Virus record (IMG/VR): IMGVR_UViG_2571042372_000007
Length of the DNA: 17,769 bases
DNA from: a virus
Taxonomy: Duplodnaviria; Heunggongvirae; Uroviricota; Caudoviricetes
Strand: one strand, 5' to 3'
Shown here one piece after another: positions 2,954-17,769 of the stretch. The notes beneath the pieces were generated by a model that worked only from the letters and a program-made list of their open reading frames with translations, did not search any database and had not been told where the DNA came from. Every line of letters starts with the position of its first letter. Position 1 is the first letter of the stretch. The position numbers and the translations under genes are program-made.

Positions 2954-3751
2954 ATGATTGATATTCATGCCGAATTAAACGAATACAAAAAAGATTTTAT
3001 TTCTTTACGTGAATTTCTTGAGATCGTGCTTAAGGTCGCTGGTGATGATTATGATGTTTCAGATGTCATAACTTGGATACTCAGGAGAATAAGCGGAGAA
3101 CATATCCGCCTGTACACAGTAAATGAATTTAAGCTGTTGGAATCTTTTTGTAACCCGTATCGGGATGAATTTGATAATGATGTTCTTTATAGAAATCTGA
3201 ATGCGGTTCGGAAACGTGGTTGTTTACCTGGTGAGAGGGATGAAAATGGTTTTCTGGTGTCCGGTTATTGGGAAGATCCCGAATTTGAGAACATTGGATT
3301 TATAAGGGGTGAAATTTTCGCAATTTTTCCCGATGTCCTTGACGCGTTAACGAAGCTGGAAGGCGCTAACTCTTCTGAAAATGACGAGGCACAAGGACGC
3401 GATATTGAAAAGAAAGAGTTGCGTACAGAGGATGATTTATTATCCCAAATCGCAATGCTGGAAAAAGAAAACGCAGAGTTAAGGGCAAGGATAGAGCAGT
3501 TAGAGCAAGAGCGCCCGATACACTTATATAAATACTGGGATAAAGACCCATTAGCTAAGGCTATTGAGATTAGAAACAGAGAGTGGGCCAATTACGATCC
3601 AGAAAATGATTTTGCCACCAGGGGAAATCAAGAAGCGATAACCAGGGAGCTTAAGCAGTGGGGGGCAAGTAATGCACTTGCAACGCTCATAGAGAGGACT
3701 GCCTGCCCTATTAACCGAGACAACAGTCAAAAGAACGCAAAGCCGGATTAA
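2954..3751 (+). CDS. Hypothetical protein, 265 aa, AT-rich, predicted coiled-coil segment; integrase-proximal cargo
   Basis: ORF with SD GAGGTG (2943-2948) 5 nt before ATG 2954 (the track's 2948 start is a GTG two codons upstream). Contains heptad-like IAMLEKENAELRARIEQLEQE. No family recognised. Confidence 0.6.
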   Translation: MIDIHAELNEYKKDFISLREFLEIVLKVAGDDYDVSDVITWILRRISGEHIRLYTVNEFKLLESFCNPYRDEFDNDVLYRNLNAVRKRGCLPGERDENGFLVSGYWEDPEFENIGFIRGEIFAIFPDVLDALTKLEGANSSENDEAQGRDIEKKELRTEDDLLSQIAMLEKENAELRARIEQLEQERPIHLYKYWDKDPLAKAIEIRNREWANYDPENDFATRGNQEAITRELKQWGASNALATLIERTACPINRDNSQKNAKPD

Positions 3752-3945: not shown

Positions 3946-4143
3946 ATGTCAAATACGCTTATTCGTTTAACAGAAGTTCAGCGTAGAACTGGATATAGCA
4001 AGGCATGGATTTATCGCCTTATGGGGCAAGGTAAATTTCCTGCATCAGTTAAAATTGGCTCGCGAGCTATTGCTTTCGTTGAGAGTGAAATTGACGAGTG
4101 GATTAATCAGCGTATTGCGGAATCACGCGGAACAGCTACCTGA
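3946..4143 (+). CDS. alpA: AlpA-family transcriptional regulator (phage excisionase/activator-like HTH)
   Basis: 65-aa protein LIRLTEVQRRTGYSKAWIYRLMGQGKFPASVKIGSRAIAFVESEIDEWINQR matches the AlpA/Phage_AlpA pattern (HTH, then GxR...W.ESEIDEWI). Confidence 0.85.
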   Translation: MSNTLIRLTEVQRRTGYSKAWIYRLMGQGKFPASVKIGSRAIAFVESEIDEWINQRIAESRGTAT

Positions 4144-4220: not shown

Positions 4221-5021
4221 ATGAAATTTCCAAAAACGCCCGTACAGGGGCGGGGCTTCGTTCGGCCTGAAAACCAGAATCTGCAAAATTTCGGCGAAAT
4301 TATCCCGATTATTTCCGGCGTTATTGGCGGGAGTGAAACCACTATTGTTAGCGCCAGAGCGTTACATAAGGCGTTAGGTGTAGGGCGCGTTTTCCGTTCG
4401 TGGATCAAGGGGCGCATTGAAGAATATGGGTTCACGGAAGGCGTGGATTATGAGGTTGTTGAATATTTGAGCCGACCCGATCCGGTGAGCGCAAAATCTC
4501 GCCAGCAAACCGCTCTTGAGTACATCATCACAGTGAACATGGCGAAAGAACTGGCGATGGTCGAACGTACCGAACAGGGCCGCGCCGTTCGCCAGTACTT
4601 TATCAAATGCGAGGAGGAGCTACACAAGGTTGCGCCTGTTCGTTCCGCAGCGTTACGCCGGGAACTGAAAGCCCGTATCACAGTTGCCAGCTACTTTAAG
4701 CCAATGTGTGCCGCGCTGGAGGCGTACCGGGCTGAACTGGGTAAAAACACACTCCAGCACCACTACACCACGGAAGCGAACATGCTGGCGCGTATCGTGC
4801 TGGGTGGCATGACTGCAAAACAGTGGGCACTGGCGAACGGCATTACAGGCGAACCACGCGACCACATGAGCACGTTGCAGCTTGAGCACCTTTCTTACCT
4901 TGAGCAGAGCAATATCACGCTGATTGAGTTAGGCCAGGACTACCACCAGCGGAAGGCTGAATTAATTCGTCTTTCGCAGCGTTGGTTAGCCCGTCGTATG
5001 GAGGAAAACAGCCATGTGTAA
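4221..5021 (+). CDS. Phage antirepressor-family protein (ORF6N/Ant-like N-terminal domain)
   Basis: SD CAGGAG before ATG; motif SARALHKALGVGRVFRSWIKGRIEEYGFTEGVDYEV resembles the antirepressor N-terminal domain signature (LH..LGV...F..WI..RI..YGF.EG.DY). Assigned from memory of the family pattern. Confidence 0.55.
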   Translation: MKFPKTPVQGRGFVRPENQNLQNFGEIIPIISGVIGGSETTIVSARALHKALGVGRVFRSWIKGRIEEYGFTEGVDYEVVEYLSRPDPVSAKSRQQTALEYIITVNMAKELAMVERTEQGRAVRQYFIKCEEELHKVAPVRSAALRRELKARITVASYFKPMCAALEAYRAELGKNTLQHHYTTEANMLARIVLGGMTAKQWALANGITGEPRDHMSTLQLEHLSYLEQSNITLIELGQDYHQRKAELIRLSQRWLARRMEENSHV

Positions 5022-5480
5022 CGCTCTGACCGTTACAAAAAGAGAAAGCGCCCCGTTGCCGGAGCGCCTTTGTGAACGAATAGCCTACTGCGCCATATTG
5101 CTTACTGTCTACGAGGCAGATTATAGCGTTGTGGTCGCACAGAGTGAAGGCGCTGATCACCGTTACTACAGCACGCCAGAAATGCAGAATATTTTGCTGC
5201 AAAATGTCGTTGGTCACACTGTCCGGAAAGCAAAAAATTTTGCTGGTGGCGCGACTGATGCGATTTTGTCAGGTCGCCAGGTGCTGATCAATCTGATGTC
5301 TGATTTCGTTCTGGATAAAACAAAGGCGACCGCAGAGGGCCGCCAGTGGGAAAGCTACATACTTGAACGCATCGCCAACAATGCCAGATTTGCGGCTGGT
5401 GGGCAATGTGTCAGCTTTGCACCAATGACTCTATGTTTAACTGAGGGTCATTATGGTGAATATGCTGGCTTGCTGGTGGG
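5014..5480 (+). other. ORF translationally coupled to the antirepressor gene (ATGTGTAA overlap); 3' end undefined
   Basis: Starts MCNALTVTKRES at the same CATGTGTAA junction type seen at 6593, which argues the start is real. The frame has no stop until 6600 and turns Cys/Ser-rich and junk-like from about residue 155. End coordinate is approximate. Confidence 0.3.
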
Positions 5481-5738
5481 CTATTCCTGCTCTTTAACAT
5501 TGCCATGCCGCGATGTTTTCCAGGTATGCGACCCCATTTTTGTGTGCCTGTACTCTTTAAGGAATTTCTCAAGGACAAACGCACAGGGCGCGAATCTGTC
5601 TGACTCATGCTCGTACGCTATCTTTCTGCGCTGTCTTTTCCGTGCCGGTGATGGTGTATTGGTTGATTCTTTGTTGGTCATGGCGCTGCCCTGTAAAATA
5701 ATGCACCGTAGTTCCTCACACCACGGCACCTATAGTGG

Positions 5739-6044
5739 TTATTCCTGCTCTTTAGCTTTGCGCCGCTGGAGTTCTTCACGCGCGACGGTGACGAGTTGCC
5801 CGATTTCCTCGGCAGCTTTGACTCCGATTTTTTCCACCTGCGCTAGGGCATCGAGCGAAGAAACCAGGGGATTTTCTCCGCTTCCTTCTGCCTGGCGGCG
5901 GGCGATTTCACCGCGAACGGCTGTAATCACGAAAGCGGCTATTGTTTCCCCTTCCGTTTTCGAATTTTCCATTTCCTCGATTACATCATGGGGGAAGCGG
6001 ATATTTTTCATTTGCGATCTGCTGTTGATGTTTCCTGTTGCCAT
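5739..6044 (-). CDS. Small protein, possible ribbon-helix-helix-type regulator, divergent from the replication operon
   Basis: 101-aa minus-strand ORF MATGNINSRSQMKNIRFPHDVIEEMENSKTEGETIAAFVITAVRGEIARRQ; an N-terminal beta-strand-like segment followed by helices looks RHH-like. Weak SD; start may instead be the internal MKNIRF. Confidence 0.45.
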   Translation of the reverse strand: MATGNINSRSQMKNIRFPHDVIEEMENSKTEGETIAAFVITAVRGEIARRQAEGSGENPLVSSLDALAQVEKIGVKAAEEIGQLVTVAREELQRRKAKEQE

Positions 6045-6135
6045 CAGAATGTCCGGTTATTTTGAGGTGTGTACACATTACACCAAAAGGTGTGTTGATA
6101 AAACACTTGACACTGTAGCACACTTAAATTTAATT

Positions 6136-6168
6136 TGTATATACACCAATTGTTGTGGTGTATATACA
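6136..6168. promoter_or_regulatory. 13-bp perfect inverted repeat (TGTATATACACCA N7 TGGTGTATATACA) in the divergent intergenic region
   Basis: Arms at 6136-6148 and 6156-6168 are exact reverse complements; located between the minus-strand gene (ends 6044) and the plus-strand operon start (6235). Additional GTGT/ACAC dyads at 6065-6090. Confidence 0.6.
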
Positions 6169-6234
6169 GCAACGCCCCGCAGTGGTGGCACACATGCAGG
6201 GCGTCTAACCAAACCGTTAAACGAGGTAACGATT

Positions 6235-6600
6235 ATGGCTGGAACACAGCATACCCAAACTCACCCTAAATTTATATACACCTTCCTGGCGGTGCACCGT
6301 GATTGCATTGCTGACGGTAAAAACACTGTACACGTAGCCGCCGATACGCTGGTTGATGCCTGCGAGATGCTCAATGACATGGGCTATATCTCGGCAACAT
6401 GGAAAGGGCGCGAAGAAAACACGCTGTTTATTCAGAAATGCGAAAACAATTTTATCTGGCGTTTTATCGCCCTGAGTACGGCACAACCGCGCGTGATTCA
6501 CATCGAGGCCACCAGCGAACAGGAAGCACGCCAGCAATCTCCTGATGGCTGCGTGATGGTATTCGCTGCCCGTATTCGCCAGGAGGTGGAGCATGTGTAA
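6235..6600 (+). CDS. Hypothetical protein, 121 aa (first gene of the replication operon)
   Basis: ATG 6235 preceded by SD-like GAGGTAACG; the protein-like tail of the 528-aa track ORF (MAGTQHTQTHPKFIYTFLAVHRDC...); stop overlaps the next gene start (ATGTGTAA). Confidence 0.55.
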   Translation: MAGTQHTQTHPKFIYTFLAVHRDCIADGKNTVHVAADTLVDACEMLNDMGYISATWKGREENTLFIQKCENNFIWRFIALSTAQPRVIHIEATSEQEARQQSPDGCVMVFAARIRQEVEHV

Positions 6601-6817
6601 TGCAACATGGCCTGATGCAGCGGTAGACGCTATCAAAACGCTGATGGATTCACTTATTGAGATTTCTGCTATCGCTGGTGTGGCGCATAAACACGCAGCC
6701 AGAGAATCAGAATGCATCTCCCATTATTTAGCATTTGTGCAGCTAAAAGCCGATCAGGCACTGGATAAGGCCGGAAAAATTATCATGGCTGATGTGCAGG
6801 AGGTGCACCATGCATAA
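6593..6817 (+). CDS. Hypothetical protein, 74 aa
   Basis: Start coupled to the upstream stop; ends ...QEVHHA with stop overlapping the next start (CCATGCATAA). Confidence 0.5.
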   Translation: MCNATWPDAAVDAIKTLMDSLIEISAIAGVAHKHAARESECISHYLAFVQLKADQALDKAGKIIMADVQEVHHA

Positions 6818-7175
6818 CCTGTCAATTTCTGACCTTAACAGCATTCAGTTTGACGAGAAATTTACCGGGCAGTTGCTGGTCAATGTGGAGAACGGGCGCA
6901 TAGTGCGTAATTACCACCTGCCGGATGGTGCAATTGCCGGAAGCGTTGAAGCATTGCTGGAGCTGGCGGAACGTGCGCGACTGATTAAGCCGTCAACGTG
7001 CCATCACGATGATGATCTGCATTTTACCGGGTGTATGGTGAGTCACTACGAAAACGGCGTTGAAGTATCCTGCGAACGTCTGCGTGATGATTGCTGTTTC
7101 GGCACACTGCCGGAATTTATCGAATTGCTGACCAGTTGCGGTTATCAGGTCATTCAGGGGGGTAAACATGCGTGA
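6810..7175 (+). CDS. Hypothetical protein, 121 aa, paralogue of the 7394..7594 product
   Basis: Preferred start ATG 6810 (MHNLSISDL) overlapping the upstream stop, rather than the track's 6792; shares an FTG(Q/R)(L/V)LV...G motif with the 66-aa protein at 7394. Confidence 0.5.
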   Translation: MHNLSISDLNSIQFDEKFTGQLLVNVENGRIVRNYHLPDGAIAGSVEALLELAERARLIKPSTCHHDDDLHFTGCMVSHYENGVEVSCERLRDDCCFGTLPEFIELLTSCGYQVIQGGKHA

Positions 7176-7401
7176 TGATCGTTTTAATTCCCTGAAACAG
7201 GAGTTTGATGGCGCACCGGAAGATACATCGGGCGCATTGTTGAGCATTGCTGACATGATGAAAGCTGCATATTTTCTTATCAATACCAGTGGCTACAAGT
7301 CAGAGGGTGAAATGATTCTTAGTATTGCGTCGGACTATGCTGAATATGTGGCAGAGACGCGTTACAGAAGAAAATCTCTGGAGGATGTAAGCCATGCATA
7401 A
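7168..7401 (+). CDS. Hypothetical protein, 77 aa
   Basis: ATG overlaps upstream stop (ATGCGTGA); ends ...EDVSHA with stop overlapping the next start (CCATGCATAA), mirroring the 6593..6817 gene. Confidence 0.5.
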   Translation: MRDDRFNSLKQEFDGAPEDTSGALLSIADMMKAAYFLINTSGYKSEGEMILSIASDYAEYVAETRYRRKSLEDVSHA

Positions 7402-7594
7402 TCATGAAGCGCATGTACCCGTAGTGCTTAATGTGCCAGATGATTTCACCGGACGCGTGCTGGTTTACCTGGATAAAGGGAAAGTGAAATCACAATGCCG
7501 ACTGAAAAGTAATGAGATTGTTGGTTCTCCTGAATTTTTTTCTGAACTTTGTATTCGTGCGGAAATAAAACCGGAACTGCTGACAGGAAAATAA
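7394..7594 (+). CDS. Hypothetical protein, 66 aa, paralogue of the 6810..7175 product
   Basis: Begins MHNHEA; motif PDDFTGRVLVYLDKGKVK parallels DEKFTGQLLVNVENGRIV in the 6810 gene. Confidence 0.5.
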   Translation: MHNHEAHVPVVLNVPDDFTGRVLVYLDKGKVKSQCRLKSNEIVGSPEFFSELCIRAEIKPELLTGK

Positions 7595-7598
7595 AACC

Positions 7599-7889
7599 AT
7601 GAAAAAGAAATATTCTGGCTTTACTGCCAGCGGCCTCTCTCGGCCTGAAATCCGCCCCGGTGATATTTTCCGGGACACCAGACGCGGGGGACGGGTGGTT
7701 ATTCGTCACGTTACGCCAGGCAATATCACCTACCGCCGTGAGGCTTACGAATATGACTGCGTAATGCCGCGCCGTCAGTTTGAGCGTGATTTTATTCTGG
7801 TGGAAAACAAACAACAGGCAGTGGCGAGACGTGCAGCCACGAATATTAAAAAAATCCGGGCAATGTTGGTTGCGGGAGGTAAGAAGTGA
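7599..7889 (+). CDS. Hypothetical basic protein, 96 aa
   Basis: ORF immediately upstream of, and overlapping (GTGA), the primase/helicase gene start; Arg/Lys-rich. Confidence 0.5.
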   Translation: MKKKYSGFTASGLSRPEIRPGDIFRDTRRGGRVVIRHVTPGNITYRREAYEYDCVMPRRQFERDFILVENKQQAVARRAATNIKKIRAMLVAGGKK

Positions 7890-9691
7890 AAAACGCACCG
7901 AATTTAAAATATCAGCCGAAGGATAAATTCACCGAGGTAATCATTTTTGCCGGGACGGATGCTTACGCCCATGCTCAACACTGGATTGAAAGCGAAGGAC
8001 GAAAACACGGCGATAACGTGCCTCCTGTTTACCTGGGGCCAAAGCAACTGGCAGACCTGGCGAATATCCGCATTGTCGACGATGAACGCCGCTTTGCGCG
8101 TGTCTATCTCGCGGGGGAGATAGAGCCAATCCAGATCAATGCTATTGCTGAAAAGCTGGCGCTGGCTGGTGTACAGGACGCGAAATTATACAAAGGTATC
8201 ACCGACCGGGAGCCGGAAAACTGGCGCGACTACCTGCAACGGATCCGCGAACAGGCAGAGAGTGGGGAAGTTTCAGCGATGAAATTAGCCACAAAAAATA
8301 TTGACCTATCCAGGCCAGCACTAAATCAGATGGGAGCCAGCCAGAGAGGGGAAGTGTTACTTGAATATTATGGAAGAGCACTGGCTATAAATGATGATTC
8401 TGATGTAGTTCACCATTACAACGGAATTGTCTGGGTGCCTGTATCTGATAAGGAACTCCAGCGGTCTATGGCGAAGATTTTTATTGATGCTGGAATCAGT
8501 TATTCGCAAAACGCCATTAAATTTGCCGTAGACACAATGAAATTGAGCCTGCCTGTTATGGGCGGGGCAGACAGGAATCTTATTGGATTCAGTAACGGGG
8601 TATTTGATACCCGGACGGGAAATTTTCGGGAGCATAACAAAAATGACTGGTTGTTAAATGCCAGTGAATTACCGTTCAGCCCACCAGCAGAGGGGGAAAC
8701 GCTGGCAACACATGCGCCGAATTTCTGGAAGTGGCTGCGTCGTTCGGTGGCAGATAATGATCGTAAAGCTGATCGCGTACTGGCGGCATTATTCATGGTA
8801 CTGGCGAACCGGTACGACTGGCAGTTATTCCTTGAGGTAACAGGCCCAGGCGGAAGCGGTAAAAGTGTGATGGCTGAGATTTGTACCATGCTGGCGGGTA
8901 AGGCCAACACAGTATCGGCAAGCATGAAGGCTCTGGAAGACGCAAGGGAACGCGCGTTAGTAGTTGGCTTTTCGCTGATTATCATGCCGGATATGACTCG
9001 CTACGCTGGCGATGGTGCAGGAATTAAGGCAATTACTGGCGGCGACAAGGTGGCAATTGATCCGAAACATAAAGCCCCCTACTCCACACGTATTCCGGCA
9101 GTAGTGCTTGCGGTAAACAATAACGCCATGTCATTCAGTGACCGAAGCGGGGGGATCTCGCGTCGTAGGGTGATATTTAATTTCTCTGAGGTCGTACCGG
9201 AGAACGAACGCGATCCCATGCTGGCGGAAAAGATAGAAGGCGAACTGGCGGTAGTGATTCGCCATTTGCTAACACGATTTACCGACCAGGACGAAGCTAA
9301 AAGACTACTTTATGAGCAGCAAAAATCAGAAGAAGCGCTGTTGATAAAGCGCGAAGGTGATTCACTGGTGGACTTTTGCGGCTATCTGATGTCGTTGGTT
9401 AAATGTGAAGGAATGATGGTGGGCAATGCGGAAATAGTGCCATTTAGCCCGAGGCGATACCTGTATCATGCTTATTTAGCCTATATGTCAGCGCATGGCC
9501 TGGGAAAACCAGTATCACTGACACGCTTTGGTACTGATATGCCAGGAGCTATGGCGGAATACGGAAAGGAGTATAAGCGGGCTAAATGCACTAAAGGCCC
9601 GGATAAAGGGCGAGTGATAACAAATGTTCTGTTAGATGATGATGCTGATGGCTGGTTGCCAGCAGCTACAGGGATTAACGACAGAACATAA
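7886..9691 (+). CDS. Replication protein: P4-alpha-like primase/helicase C-terminal region (D5_N-like plus SF3 helicase)
   Basis: 601-aa ORF with Walker A VTGPGGSGKS and a downstream Walker-B-like acidic stretch (LIIMPD), typical of the phage/plasmid primase P4-family C-terminal domain; followed by an iteron-rich origin-like region. Confidence 0.85.
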   Translation: MKNAPNLKYQPKDKFTEVIIFAGTDAYAHAQHWIESEGRKHGDNVPPVYLGPKQLADLANIRIVDDERRFARVYLAGEIEPIQINAIAEKLALAGVQDAKLYKGITDREPENWRDYLQRIREQAESGEVSAMKLATKNIDLSRPALNQMGASQRGEVLLEYYGRALAINDDSDVVHHYNGIVWVPVSDKELQRSMAKIFIDAGISYSQNAIKFAVDTMKLSLPVMGGADRNLIGFSNGVFDTRTGNFREHNKNDWLLNASELPFSPPAEGETLATHAPNFWKWLRRSVADNDRKADRVLAALFMVLANRYDWQLFLEVTGPGGSGKSVMAEICTMLAGKANTVSASMKALEDARERALVVGFSLIIMPDMTRYAGDGAGIKAITGGDKVAIDPKHKAPYSTRIPAVVLAVNNNAMSFSDRSGGISRRRVIFNFSEVVPENERDPMLAEKIEGELAVVIRHLLTRFTDQDEAKRLLYEQQKSEEALLIKREGDSLVDFCGYLMSLVKCEGMMVGNAEIVPFSPRRYLYHAYLAYMSAHGLGKPVSLTRFGTDMPGAMAEYGKEYKRAKCTKGPDKGRVITNVLLDDDADGWLPAATGINDRT

Positions 9692-9998: not shown

Positions 9999-10325
9999 AT
10001 GACTAAAAATACTCGTTTTTCCCCCGAAGTCCGTCAACGGGCAGTCCGTATGGTTCTGGAAAGTCAGAGCGAATATGACTCACAATGGGCGACAATTTGT
10101 TCCATTGCTCCAAAGATTGGCTGTACGCCGGAGACTCTGCGTGTCTGGGTTCGCCAGCATGAGCGGGATACCGGGGGCGGTGATGGAGGGCTCACCACCG
10201 CTGAACGTCAGCGTCTGAAAGAGCTGGAACGTGAAAATCGTGAACTGCGCCGCAGTAACGATATCCTTCGCCAGGCTTCCGCTTATTTTGCGAAGGCGGA
10301 GTTCGACCGCCTCTGGAAAAAATGA
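9999..10325 (+). CDS. IS3-family transposase OrfA (HTH and leucine-zipper region)
   Basis: 108 aa, [55 protein letters not shown]...[30 protein letters not shown]. Confidence 0.85.
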
Positions 10326-11212
10326 TGCCACTGCTGGATAAGCTGCGTGAGCAGTACGGGGTCGGACCGCTATGCAGCGAACTGCATATTGCCCCGTCAA
10401 CGTATTACCACTGTCAGCAACAGCGACATCATCCGGATAAACGCAGTGCCCGTGCGCAGCGCGATGACTGGCTGAAGAAAGAGATACAGCGCGTATACGA
10501 TGAAAATCACAAGGTATACGGTGTGCGTAAAGTCTGGCGTCAGTTGTTACGGGAAGGTATCAGAGTGGCCAGATGCACTGTGGCACGTCTCATGGCGGTT
10601 ATGGGACTTGCCGGTGTTCTCCGGGGTAAAAAGGTCCGTACGACCATCAGCCGGAAAGCCGTTGCCGCAGGCGACCGCGTAAACCGTCAGTTCGTGGCAG
10701 AACGACCTGACCAGCTGTGGGTGGCTGATTTTACTTACGTCAGCACATGGCGGGGCTTCGTCTATGTGGCGTTCATCATTGATGTGTTTGCCGGATACAT
10801 CGTGGGGTGGCGGGTCTCATCGTCCATGGAAACGACATTCGTGCTGGATGCACTGGAGCAGGCGTTATGGGCCCGTCGACCGTCCGGCACGGTCCATCAC
10901 AGTGATAAAGGTTCTCAGTATGTATCGCTGGCCTACACACAGCGGCTTAAGGAAGCCGGATTACTGGCATCAACAGGAAGTACAGGCGACTCGTATGACA
11001 ACGCGATGGCGGAGAGCATCAATGGTCTTTACAAAGCGGAGGTAATACACCGTAAGAGCTGGAAAAACCGTGCAGAAGTGGAACTGGCCACACTCACGTG
11101 GGTGGACTGGTATAACAATCGACGATTGCTGGAAAGGCTGGGCCATACTCCTCCGGCAGAAGCAGAAAAAGCTTATTATGCTTCCATCGGAAACGATGAT
11201 CTGGCAGCCTGA
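10322..11212 (+). CDS. IS3-family transposase OrfB (DDE catalytic domain), expressed as OrfAB by -1 frameshift
   Basis: 296 aa; overlaps orfA by ATGA; DDE-type integrase core (WVADFTYV..., [10 protein letters not shown]..., YDNAMAES...) characteristic of IS3 transposases. Confidence 0.85.
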
Positions 11213-14670: not shown

Positions 14671-15897
14671 ATGATTGCAGGCGCGAAAAGAGGGAGAAAC
14701 GAACGCAAGGGGCTTCACTCTTGGCATCCATACTATGCGGGCTATTCAGAGTCATTTGTGGCTTCTGTTTTGCAGGCTGAAGGAGTTAAGTCGTCCGCTA
14801 CCGTTCTTGATCCTTGGATGGGAAGCGGTACCACTGGTATAGTTTGTCAAAAGCAAACCATAAAGTGTATTGGAGCAGATATTAATCCTGTAATGAGCTA
14901 TTTTGCTGCAGCCAAAAGTAGGGATAATATTTCAGCGCTGGATTATACCGGAGAGCAACTCCTGGAAAGGATACTGCTTTGCTTTAGAAAAAAAACAAAA
15001 GATATAACTGAGTCATCGAAGGGCTATCCACTTATTGAACAGTTACAAAAGTTTTATAAATGTATCTGTGATCAGTTTATGGATAAAGGACAAAATGATA
15101 TCGTAAATCCTTTAAAAGCATTTTATTGCAGTGTTTTATTTTATACTGTTCGCAATGTCCTTGATGTTAGGTCAACTTCAAATCCTACATGGATTTCTAA
15201 AAAAGTAGACTTTAATAATAAATTTGATATTTGTTTTGAATATAATAAAAATTTTAAAATTATGCGTGAGCAGTTAAGTGAATATTATGGCAGCGCTAAT
15301 GGGGGGGCATGTTACTCGATTTTAAACGTGGATAGTAAAAAATTAAATATTAAAAGTAACACAATTGATCTTGTTATTACATCGCCACCGTATTTAACAC
15401 GAATAGACTATGCCGTTTCTACTCGTCTTGAGTTGGAAATAATTTTAGGGAGTGAGGGATATAAGTCTCTTAGAAAGGAAATGATGGGCACGACGACTGT
15501 GCCTAAAGTTGCGGATGAAATTAATAAAAAATGGGGGCCATTGTGTATGGATGTTTTGTCATCGGTAACATCGCATACATCAAGAGCATCTGGAAGTTAT
15601 TACCTTAAAAATAAAATTAGATATTTTTCTGATGCGTATGAGTCATTAATGGAAATCTTTAGAGTTTTAAAGGTAGGTTGCTCTGGTTATTTTGTAATAC
15701 AAAATTCATATTATAAGGAAATAGAGATTCCGCTTTATGATATTTATTGTGAAATGGCGCTTTCTATTGGGTTTTCAGAAGCGAAATGTGTGAGAGAAGA
15801 TCAAGTTAAAGCAATATTTGGACAAATAAATACCAAGTCAAAAAATTATATTAAAGATAAAGTTTATTTTGAAAAAATCATAAGGATAACAAAATGA
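14671..15897 (+). CDS. SAM-dependent methyltransferase (putative DNA N6-adenine/N4-cytosine MTase), motif I before motif IV
   Basis: 408 aa; AdoMet-binding motif DPWMGSGTTG (about 14809-14838) and catalytic SPPY (about 15384-15395) in the ITSPPYLTRIDY context; AT-rich; stop overlaps the start of the next gene (ATGA). Confidence 0.75.
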   Translation: MIAGAKRGRNERKGLHSWHPYYAGYSESFVASVLQAEGVKSSATVLDPWMGSGTTGIVCQKQTIKCIGADINPVMSYFAAAKSRDNISALDYTGEQLLERILLCFRKKTKDITESSKGYPLIEQLQKFYKCICDQFMDKGQNDIVNPLKAFYCSVLFYTVRNVLDVRSTSNPTWISKKVDFNNKFDICFEYNKNFKIMREQLSEYYGSANGGACYSILNVDSKKLNIKSNTIDLVITSPPYLTRIDYAVSTRLELEIILGSEGYKSLRKEMMGTTTVPKVADEINKKWGPLCMDVLSSVTSHTSRASGSYYLKNKIRYFSDAYESLMEIFRVLKVGCSGYFVIQNSYYKEIEIPLYDIYCEMALSIGFSEAKCVREDQVKAIFGQINTKSKNYIKDKVYFEKIIRITK

Positions 15898-17006
15898 ATG
15901 ACGTAACTAAATTGCTATCTCAGATAGATGAAAAAAGAGATGAGGTAGTAACTGATTCTTATACCATATCATGGCGTGAAGTAATTAATCTATATAAAGA
16001 AAATGAGATAACCATTTCTCCAGACTACCAAAGGCTTTTTCGTTGGGATAACGCAAGACAAAGCCAATTTATCGAGTCATTACTTTTAAATATACCTACG
16101 CCAACACTTTTTTTCTACATTGATAATAATGGTAAGCAGGAGGTTATCGATGGATTGCAACGTGTGAGTACTATAATTAGATTTTTTTCAGAGGATATTT
16201 TTAATAAGGAAGAAATAGATAATGCAAAGAAACAAAACTCTGTAAATGATGTCCGTAATCCAACTGTTCTTGATGATGTGCCTATAATTACAGAATTAAA
16301 TGGATGGACTGCAAAAGGATTGCCGGACAAAGTTAGCCGAACTATAAAAAATGCGCGAGTAAATGTTGTTATTTTGGAGCAAGAAACAAAACCTGAAACT
16401 AAATATAATGTTTTTAAACGACTGAATAGGTCTGGTGTTCGTTTGAGTGACCAGGAAATACGTAATTGCATGGCTAGATTAGCAGGGAATGAATTTGCAG
16501 ATCGCTTACGTAAGATGGCCGAAATTGATGGTATTGTTCAAGCTCTTGGAATAAATGAAGATGGCCAAAAATCTCAAGGTGTTGAGGAAGCTTTGCTACG
16601 AGTTATGGCATCTTTGACTTATGCGGATAAATTTAGCCATAGTGTAACTGACTTTTTGGATGAATTTATGTTCTACGCGGCAGAACATAATGTTATTGAT
16701 ATTAATTTTGAATTAAAAATAAAAAGAACTTTTGATTTGATAAATATTGCTGGTTTATCTGGTAAAGCATTTAAATTTAGAAAGGATGGTGCTCCAAGTG
16801 GCCCGTTTAGTACTAATTTATTAGATGTTGTTGCTGTTGGTATTTTTAGTAATGTAGATAATTTAACACCTGCTGAGGTGGCGAAAAGATTTGATTATTT
16901 AATGGATGGTGAGATCAAAGAATTAAGAGCTTGTACTGGTTCTGGATCTAATACTAAAGCCAAATTAGAGAAAAGAATCGCTCTTGGGAAGAAGGTGTTT
17001 GGATAA
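15894..17006 (+). CDS. DUF262 (ParB/Srx-like NTPase, GmrS-type N-terminal domain) protein
   Basis: 370 aa; signature SPDYQRLFRW (about 16017-16046), IDGLQR (about 16144-16161, canonical DGQQR) and FKRLNRSGVRLS; no recognisable fused nuclease (DUF1524/HNH) domain. Confidence 0.75.
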   Translation: MNDVTKLLSQIDEKRDEVVTDSYTISWREVINLYKENEITISPDYQRLFRWDNARQSQFIESLLLNIPTPTLFFYIDNNGKQEVIDGLQRVSTIIRFFSEDIFNKEEIDNAKKQNSVNDVRNPTVLDDVPIITELNGWTAKGLPDKVSRTIKNARVNVVILEQETKPETKYNVFKRLNRSGVRLSDQEIRNCMARLAGNEFADRLRKMAEIDGIVQALGINEDGQKSQGVEEALLRVMASLTYADKFSHSVTDFLDEFMFYAAEHNVIDINFELKIKRTFDLINIAGLSGKAFKFRKDGAPSGPFSTNLLDVVAVGIFSNVDNLTPAEVAKRFDYLMDGEIKELRACTGSGSNTKAKLEKRIALGKKVFG

Positions 17007-17007
17007 A

Positions 17008-17769
17008 ATGAGAATATCAGATTTCGATGATTTCAAGGTGATGTTGGAAAAGACGAAAAATGAAAGTCTTGGATTCCTTGAGAGCATAAAGTCTATTAAT
17101 GAGTTTATGTCGAGATCAGGTGATAAAGACAAGGAGGATATGTTTAGAATAATATCGGTCCCAATGATTTATTCTTCTTGGGAGGGTTTTTTTACTGAAA
17201 CAATGTCAGTTTGCTTAAATACATTGAAACTCTCAGATAGAGAGGCATTTAGATACTCTGCAGAAATTCGAGCACTTTGGTTGCAACGAGAACCATTTTA
17301 TAGCAAGTATGTAGATATGATAAAAAATATTTATGATGCTGACTCACACCGAAGCATTGTCCATAATGGCGCCCAAATAAAAAAGAAAGTTACGAAGGGG
17401 GCGTTTAAACTAACAAGTGAGGTAATTCAACACATTGACAGGTTTAATAAATCCACATTATCAGATTGCGATGTTTCTGAATTAGTTATGACATTTTCCA
17501 ATGTGAATGAAATGGTTGTCAAGGTGAATTTCGATGCTATAGGTTTGGATTATTCATCACTTGATTTATCGCAACTAGGTGAGGTTGTTGGCCTTAGAAA
17601 TTCTTTGGGACATGGGGAGTTTAAAAGTAGTGTTAACCCTAGGAAATTTAATTCAATAATTGTGTATGTGGAAAATCTGATCATCGATTTGAATCAATGT
17701 GCTATAACGTGGTTGGATAAATTAGAAGATGAAATAACTAAGCCTGAAGATAATGAGACTATTCAGTGA
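17008..17769 (+). CDS. Hypothetical protein with HEPN-like Rx4H motif (candidate RNase effector)
   Basis: Preferred start ATG 17008, one nt after the upstream stop (the track's 16984 is a TTG); 253 aa; C-terminal LRNSLGHGEF (about 17593-17622) fits the HEPN R-x4-6-H active-site motif; complete, stop at 17767-17769. Confidence 0.55.
   Translation: MRISDFDDFKVMLEKTKNESLGFLESIKSINEFMSRSGDKDKEDMFRIISVPMIYSSWEGFFTETMSVCLNTLKLSDREAFRYSAEIRALWLQREPFYSKYVDMIKNIYDADSHRSIVHNGAQIKKKVTKGAFKLTSEVIQHIDRFNKSTLSDCDVSELVMTFSNVNEMVVKVNFDAIGLDYSSLDLSQLGEVVGLRNSLGHGEFKSSVNPRKFNSIIVYVENLIIDLNQCAITWLDKLEDEITKPEDNETIQ

Follow-up and report, generated by a model that had tools for sequence, protein, structure and literature searches.

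The DNA considered here is a 17,769-nt stretch (referred to below as the window), IMG/VR virus record IMGVR_UViG_2571042372_000007, and is an AlpA-type Escherichia coli phage-inducible chromosomal island (PICI) integrated at tRNA-Thr. Four small overlapping genes, here called A1, B1, A2, and B2, form an array in it, bordered by an Icd-like gene on the left and a DUF4222-primase pair on the right. They probably make up a chain of small accessory genes in the island's early operon, each of them dispensable, linked in translation and shuffled by recombination. The gene chain and its junctions are as follows (lengths in amino acids, aa; isoelectric points as pI):

6235..6600, plus strand: Icd-like gene, 121 aa, ending ...QEVEHV-stop (NCBIfam NF033153, E 6e-23); heads the chained operon
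6578..6600, plus strand: junction cassette 1 (Icd/A1), GCCAGGAGGTGGAGCATGTGTAA, Shine-Dalgarno sequence plus 8-nt overlap (D1 repeat member; motif scan)
6593..6817, plus strand: A1, 74 aa, pI 5.6 (acidic); cassette family A1, phrog_5146
6795..6817, plus strand: junction cassette 2 (A1/B1), TGCAGGAGGTGCACCATGCATAA (direct-repeat and motif scan)
6810-7175, plus strand: B1, 121 aa, pI 5.1 (acidic), two FTG domains
6810..6995, plus strand: B1 domain 1, residues ~1-62, FTG copy 1
6996..7175, plus strand: B1 domain 2, residues ~63-121, FTG copy 2, ending KHA-stop
7153..7175, plus strand: junction cassette 3 (B1/A2), TTCAGGGGGGTAAACATGCGTGA (motif scan)
7168..7401, plus strand: A2, 77 aa, pI 4.7 (acidic); cassette family A2, phrog_24341
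7379..7401, plus strand: junction cassette 4 (A2/B2), TGGAGGATGTAAGCCATGCATAA (direct-repeat and motif scan)
7394..7594, plus strand: B2, 66 aa, near-neutral pI, single B domain (FTG copy 3); phrog_340, E 2e-20
7599..7889, plus strand: DUF4222 gene, 96 aa, pI 11 (Pfam PF13973, E 1e-19); conserved right border of the array, with a 4-nt gap after B2 and a 4-nt overlap with the primase gene
7886..9691, plus strand: D5-type primase/helicase gene (pri-rep; Pfam D5_N, DUF5906, Pox_D5); closes the gene chain

The four small genes are in frame at these positions, as a sequence-only reading of the window had called them, and all are annotated as coding sequences by RefSeq in identical E. coli genomes. 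Among relatives, substitutions at codon positions 1/2/3 number 31/24/48 for A1, 41/35/65 for B1, 29/25/50 for A2, and 23/21/38 for B2; given this third-position bias, all four are protein-coding and under purifying selection. That reading had left their functions unassigned, and none of the four has a match in NCBIfam, PADLOC, or the Pfam copy searched, which lacks the PF27490 model mentioned below.

The junctions between these genes are closely similar. CCATGCATAA, the shared A-to-B junction that had been pointed out from the sequence, occurs exactly twice in the window (6808 and 7392), both times on the plus strand, against 0.04 occurrences expected; none of 200 shuffles contained two or more. 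CATGTGTAA, likewise said to occur twice, is found in the window only at 5013 and 6592, and A1 and A2 do end in HA-stop while B1 and B2 begin with MHN. What had been missed is the B1/A2 junction at 7168, with the same 8-nt overlap geometry (ATGCGTGA; ACATGCGTGA) and with B1 ending in KHA-stop. All four junctions in the series Icd/A1/B1/A2/B2 are 8-nt ATGnnTRA overlaps behind a Shine-Dalgarno sequence that lies within the upstream open reading frame (ORF): GGAGG or GGGGG is found 3-9 nt ahead of CATG at 6582, 6799, 7157, and 7380. Scanning for the combined motif GGRGG-N3-9-CATGnnTRA gives these four sites and one more at 5000, five distinct plus-strand sites in the whole window against 0.05 expected. 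The 23-nt junction is the top direct-repeat family (D1) of the region.

This is the coupling-type anatomy claimed earlier, with 8-nt overlaps and a Shine-Dalgarno sequence in the last codons of each upstream gene, and it lends good support to translational coupling along the predicted chain. No convincing internal promoter or terminator was found between 6235 and 7886. Ribosomes ending one gene would reinitiate on the next, in which case expression of the whole chain would depend on translation of its first gene.

Related arrays were gathered in a census of 160 IMG/VR loci reached through two DUF4222 variants, together with five RefSeq loci and one E. ruysiae locus from a genome-contig scan. 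Each array was walked as a plus-strand ORF chain from DUF4222 back to the Icd-like gene, which reproduced the RefSeq gene calls. The full interval was available in 127 loci, with 99 distinct arrays and 395 cassette proteins. The cassettes fall into families A1, A2, A3, single B, double B (BB, as in the window's B1), A1-A2 fusions of 154 aa, X, and a few rare ones. About five main families (X, A1, B/BB, A2, and A3) account for 28 architectures in the 99 distinct arrays, among them the following (number of arrays in each):

Icd-A1-BB-A2-B (the window's architecture): 19
Icd-A1A2-A3: 10
Icd-BB-B: 9
Icd-A1-A3: 8
Icd-A1-A2-A3: 7
Icd-X-A1-A2-A3 (EcCICFT073): 6
Icd-A3: 3
Icd-B: 1

Cassette order is largely colinear, every cassette is dispensable in some array, and A and B cassettes are found apart, which argues against an obligate A-B unit and against pairing of the toxin-antitoxin kind.

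Cassettes are sometimes fused into one ORF, as at 3216-3680 of census locus L005 and in the proteins P0004, P0007, and P0026. The 154-aa A1-A2 fusions (phrog_2512) are frequent, and public assemblies also contain B1-A2 fusions, of 181-196 aa. The phrog_2512 family had been considered as a link between A1, B1, and A2, and was rejected as such, since it is the family of the A1-A2 fusion proteins.

The junctions are conserved across the census. Internal junctions comprise 198 overlaps of 8 nt, 60 of 11 nt, and 14 of 4 nt, and the last cassette is usually separated from DUF4222 by a gap of 4-6 nt. The 59 distinct 8-nt junctions have the consensus TnTTnnnCAGGnGGTGnnnC-ATG-CnT-AA-T, in which CAGGrGGTG carries the Shine-Dalgarno sequence. 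Each internal junction is a conserved cassette of ~25 nt (consensus TnTT-CAGGrGGTG-nnnC-ATG-CnT-AA), and the upstream proteins end in Q-(E/G)-(V/G)-x-H-(A/V/G)-stop, the last codons of which hold the Shine-Dalgarno sequence of the next gene. The HA-stop/MHN signature is mostly a consequence of the overlap geometry, because the C that precedes ATG completes a His codon (CAT), and GCA-TAA is read as Ala and stop. The junction signature is also found between unrelated cassettes (Icd/A1, B1/A2, and A2/A3).

The similarity of the second genes goes well beyond the junctions. The FTG motif that had been noted in both is present, as FTGQLLVNVENG in B1 and FTGRVLVYLDKG in B2, and a third copy, previously overlooked, lies in the second half of B1 (FTGCMVSHYENG). 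By BLASTP the N-terminal half of B1 is 34% identical to B2 (E 2e-7), and the C-terminal half matches B2 with an E of 0.005. With the census family profiles, hhalign gives probabilities of 99.5% for single B against the N-half of BB, 95.4% for single B against its C-half, and 76.9% (E 2e-5) for the two halves against each other. By these comparisons B1 and B2 are paralogues of one ~55-aa domain, the FTG domain, which is present three times, B1 being an internal tandem duplication with two copies fused. Both also match the phrog_340 profile (B1 with E 2e-28, in two stretches), and PF27490 is precomputed on P0022 and P0023, close homologues in the B family, which has no catalogue entry other than these two.

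The B domain is a narrow Enterobacterial domain without a known fold. An AlphaFold2 (AF2) model of B2, with a predicted local distance difference test score (pLDDT) of 83, has a beta-hairpin (residues 21-37), a helix (46-55), and a short helix (60-64), and the modeled fold matches nothing solved; the B1 model was poor (pLDDT 48) and was not used. When the B alignment was used as a profile against PDB sequences, only a chance match came up (E 0.1). An exhaustive phmmer search with B2 against 1.84 billion representatives returned 16 matches. Four of these, to long proteins (one DUF3127-like, one TIR-containing, and two with Big_3_5 Ig-like domains), were judged spurious, being weak and confined to short stretches. 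A tblastn search with B1 of 50,697 phage genomes found nothing, and the genome-contig scan with B2 found a single locus, that in E. ruysiae. Other than this locus, the source names of B-family members are Escherichia and Salmonella only.

The first genes of the two pairs do not behave in this way. A1 and A2 give no BLASTP alignment at E<=100, and profile comparison by hhalign gives probabilities of 0.1-0.9%, with shallow profiles (effective sequence number, Neff, 1.4-2); neither resembles the X and A3 cassettes by hhalign. A1 and A2 are, on these comparisons, unrelated in sequence to each other and to X and A3. The sequence-only reading had described A1-B1 and A2-B2 as a tandemly duplicated two-gene module, to be checked by pairwise alignment. 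Its B half stands, with B1 and B2 paralogous; its A half does not, and the pair as one duplicated unit is contradicted by relatives in which A and B cassettes assort independently (Icd-A1-A2-A3, Icd-X-A1-A2-A3, and Icd-BB-B). What has been duplicated is the B domain alone.

A modified form of the module idea is that A1-B1 and A2-B2 arose by tandem duplication of one ancestral A-B pair, after which the A genes diverged past recognition while the B genes stayed recognizable. The alternating order A1-BB-A2-B is indeed the commonest architecture (19/99), A1 and A2 are both acidic and of ~75 aa, the B genes are homologous, and both A-to-B junctions carry CCATGCATAA, with 78% identity over 23 nt. 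This junction likeness is generic, however: against the same reference copy, the Icd/A1 junction reaches 74% identity. A1 and A2 are also dissimilar by both BLASTP and profiles while B1 and B2 retain 34% identity, the two units are not equivalent because B1 contains two domains and B2 only one, and A-only (EcCICFT073) and B-only arrays exist. Duplication of an ancestral pair is for these reasons quite unlikely.

Still less can be said for functional pairing, in which A and B would be toxin-antitoxin or effector-chaperone pairs present twice, with the overlap enforcing their stoichiometry. In its favor, these small genes adjoin and overlap one another, a B follows each acidic A, and the operon also encodes a toxic Icd-like protein. 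But in many arrays A is present without B or B without A, B cassettes also stand directly after Icd or after another B, and neither obligate co-occurrence nor membership of a known toxin-antitoxin or defense family was found (PADLOC, Pfam, and NCBIfam give no match), making such pairs very improbable.

Several kinds of trace suggest that recombination has removed or exchanged cassettes. In arrays lacking A1, the Icd/BB junction (gtattcgccaggaggtgcaccATGCATAACCTG) is chimeric: it exactly combines the end of Icd with that of A1, the two meeting inside the shared CAGGAGGTG. There are natural chimeric proteins, P0070 (the N-terminus of B1 plus B2, joined at FTG), P0148 (A2 plus B2), and P0053 (AntA plus B), and many in-frame deletions between the two B1 repeats. 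Neighboring genes also differ in their divergence from the window: in locus L003, identity is 97% for BB, 87% for A1, 78% for Icd, 71% for A2, and 64% for DUF4222; in L010, it is 81% for Icd and 100% for A1; and in L059, all cassettes are 95-100% identical, with DUF4222 at 70%. BLAST match ends cluster at 6797, 7168, and 7397. The junctions were considered as exact mosaic breakpoints and rejected in that role: base by base, the breakpoints between the window and L003 are intragenic, in A1 (~6682) and A2 (~7200), with the A2 termini conserved. The likely substrates, judging from these alignments, are conserved junction-proximal segments and not the junction alone.

Another possible role for the small genes is that of replication accessory factors (origin-binding proteins or loader subunits) for the primase-helicase, duplicated to match iterons or subunits. 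They share an operon with DUF4222 and pri-rep, which follow them directly and are chained to them, and the phenotype of the ECOR61 locus discussed below needed all six linked genes including the primase. Set against this, the same cassettes precede replicases of three types (D5 primase, DUF927, and RepA helicase), arrays can be reduced to Icd-A3 or Icd-B alone, and the A and B proteins are acidic to neutral with no DNA-binding family detected. Since cassette content does not track replicase type, the small proteins are probably not replication proteins proper, and a replication accessory role is rather unlikely.

The chained and shuffled accessory array proposed at the outset remains the preferred reading. 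Conserved junctions and gene termini would serve as homology, so that recombination could remove or swap cassettes in frame, generating the 28 architectures; the chimeric junctions and the discordant divergence are what point to the junctions in this role. The encoded proteins might, more tentatively, be protein-binding accessory factors that tune the island once a phage switches it on, for example in Icd-dependent growth arrest or in exploitation of the helper.

Several points weigh against this reading. Coupling is read from gene anatomy only; predicted accessibility of the Shine-Dalgarno-AUG region falls from 0.62 at the first gene to 0.27-0.34 at the four starts that are overlapped, a difference without a control distribution and suggestive only as a hint of coupling. 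The intragenic breakpoints between the window and L003 mean that the junction cassette is not the sole recombination substrate. A1 and A2 could be structural homologues, since profile depth is low. The census is biased, having been seeded through DUF4222 and consisting mostly of Escherichia isolates, and some of the short array variants could be assembly artifacts. None of the A and B proteins could be matched to a function, a partner, or a known fold, and the connection to growth arrest passes through a system (ECOR61) placed in this family by gene lengths and overlaps, not by sequence.

A fifth junction-like site lies outside the array, at the end of antA:

5000..5021, plus strand: junction-like cassette at the antA end, GGAGGAAAACAGCCATGTGTAA, with GGAGG-N9-CATGTGTAA as at Icd/A1 (motif scan)

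With the natural AntA-B fusion P0053, this suggests that antA has been joined to such arrays. The site also opens a long reading frame. From the antA stop to the Icd-like stop (5014-6600, plus strand) there are 0 stops, against 20 and 22 in the other plus-strand frames. Its course takes in an unannotated stretch, the antisense strand of two genes encoded on the minus strand, and the promoter/operator region. Among 104 distinct related loci, 52 likewise have no stop in this frame over the 300 codons that precede the Icd domain; the other frames have an average of 15-17 stops there and are never stop-free. As a gene, the ORF from 5014 (528 codons) was rejected: it has no codon periodicity (48/50/50), no family match, and no RefSeq coding sequence. 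With substitutions lacking periodicity, it is not a conserved protein. The frame has its third codon positions in common with the minus-strand YlcI gene. It is possible that its openness reflects read-through translation from the alpA/antA operon.

The remainder of the window is that of a PICI. From the proA/tRNA-Thr side, the order is tyrosine integrase, int-alpA RNA, AlpA-type helix-turn-helix (HTH) protein, AntA/B, two minus-strand genes (one of the YlcI/YnfO family), the Icd-like gene, the four small genes, DUF4222, and the D5-type primase, followed by IS3 and then a methyltransferase/DUF262/HEPN cluster. The identification as a PICI rests on the combination of integrase, int-alpA RNA, AlpA HTH, AntA, Icd-like protein, and D5 primase adjoining tRNA-Thr; the right end of the island lies beyond the end of the window. 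Features outside the array are:

1369-1441: tRNA-Thr, adjoining the integrase gene
1611-2825: tyrosine recombinase (integrase), next to tRNA-Thr at one end, as expected of a Gram-negative PICI
2870-2937: int-alpA RNA (Rfam RF02996, 46.8 bits), between the integrase and the next gene
3946-4143: AlpA-type HTH, in the same orientation as the pri-rep module, as in PICIs
9999-11212: IS3-family transposase, just downstream of the primase

The IS3 transposase contains an ALIL frameshift pseudoknot at 10280-10396 (RF01497, 120 bits). The distal cargo (14671-17769) is a defense-like cluster in which a DNA methyltransferase is accompanied by a DUF262 protein and by a HEPN-like nuclease of the MAE_28990 family. 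The YlcI/YnfO and Icd-like genes are divergent, and the region that separates them has a perfect 13-nt inverted repeat, TGTATATACACCA / TGGTGTATATACA, with arms 7 nt apart (6136-6168), and in the same intergenic region, near the inverted repeat, are TACACC/GGTGTG direct repeats (6065-6106); together these look like operator sequences. The adjacent minus-strand genes at 5481-5681 and 5739-6044 have a common 25-nt 3′ end with 88% identity (5479-5503 and 5737-5761), and both of their proteins end in KEQE-stop, a further local repeat at gene ends.

Among known elements, a close counterpart is EcCICFT073, the prototype of the Gram-negative PICIs, whose operon is AlpA-activated after helper induction and which requires pri-rep to replicate (Fillol-Salom et al. 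2018, PMC6092414). Its frame is that of the window: int, alpA, YlcI/YnfO, Icd-like, small overlapping ORFs, DUF4222, and pri-rep/primase, with homologues of the Icd-like, A1, A2, and DUF4222 genes in the same order; the window thus has operon genes in common with a proven PICI. The arrays differ, EcCICFT073 having X-A1-A2-A3 and no B domain, and the window A1-BB-A2-B. The window also differs in being at tRNA-Thr and in having antA, IS3, and defense-like cargo. The small ORFs of EcCICFT073 were drawn as uncharacterized hypothetical proteins (PMC6092414), and those between alpA/icd and pri-rep of E. coli PICIs have been blank boxes in the literature. The present results make of them real genes under purifying selection, belonging to a handful of main families and gained, lost, and swapped as cassettes.

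A second comparison is with a prophage locus of ECOR61, in which expression of the T7-group accessory protein orf24 causes growth arrest (Silas et al., 10.1101/2023.04.06.535777). Transposon insertions that suppressed the arrest hit an Icd-like gene and, beside it, two small hypothetical genes; reconstitution needed all six linked genes including the primase, and removal of Icd abolished the effect (10.1101/2023.04.06.535777). The published coordinates give a 366-nt Icd-like gene followed by 186- and 192-nt genes, with overlaps of 8 nt and 1 nt (10.1101/2023.04.06.535777). These lengths and overlaps equal those of census array L138 (Icd-F12-X'-A3-DUF4222), and the ECOR61 system is probably a member of this operon family, though its cassettes (61 and 63 aa) are of types other than A1, B1, A2, and B2. 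If it does belong, cassettes in this slot would, by analogy, contribute to Icd-dependent arrest, with polarity of the transposon insertions as another possibility. Since arrest by this probably related operon requires its small genes, the array is a defined candidate for the determinant of trigger or helper specificity among such satellites.

A broader proposal, which must be regarded as speculative and doubtful, is that the ~25-nt junctions are at once coupling sites and in-frame recombination sites, by which satellites might build combinatorial effector arrays (including the fold-orphan B domain) without a dedicated recombinase, and that array content might set which phage signals or helpers trigger Icd-dependent arrest or induction.

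The immI operon of phage P1 (c4 RNA - icd - ant) offers a parallel to the head of the chain: an Icd gene heads the operon, and the next gene, which overlaps it, relies on translation of Icd. This icd/ant operon was reportedly described by Heinrich et al. in 1994. The window shares with it the Icd gene at the head of an operon and has an AntA-family gene nearby. It differs in that no C4-type RNA was found in the window at the Rfam gathering threshold, and in that the genes after its Icd are a variable array and a primase, not ant.

For the junctions, the nearest likeness is to lambdoid phages, where comparisons of HK97, HK022, and HK620 have found short conserved "linker" sequences at gene borders, coinciding with exchange of the neighboring genes. 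Adjacent genes in the window show discordant divergence in the same mosaic manner. Unlike the lambdoid linkers, the border here is a coupling unit (Shine-Dalgarno sequence plus 8-nt stop/start overlap), repeated 4-6 times within ~1.4 kb, and several breakpoints are intragenic. Coupled genes that overlap, and cassettes in mosaic arrangement, are well known from phages, and no general principle is altered here; the new details are the particular families of cassettes, the junction unit with its repetition, and the probable link to an arrest system that phage triggers.

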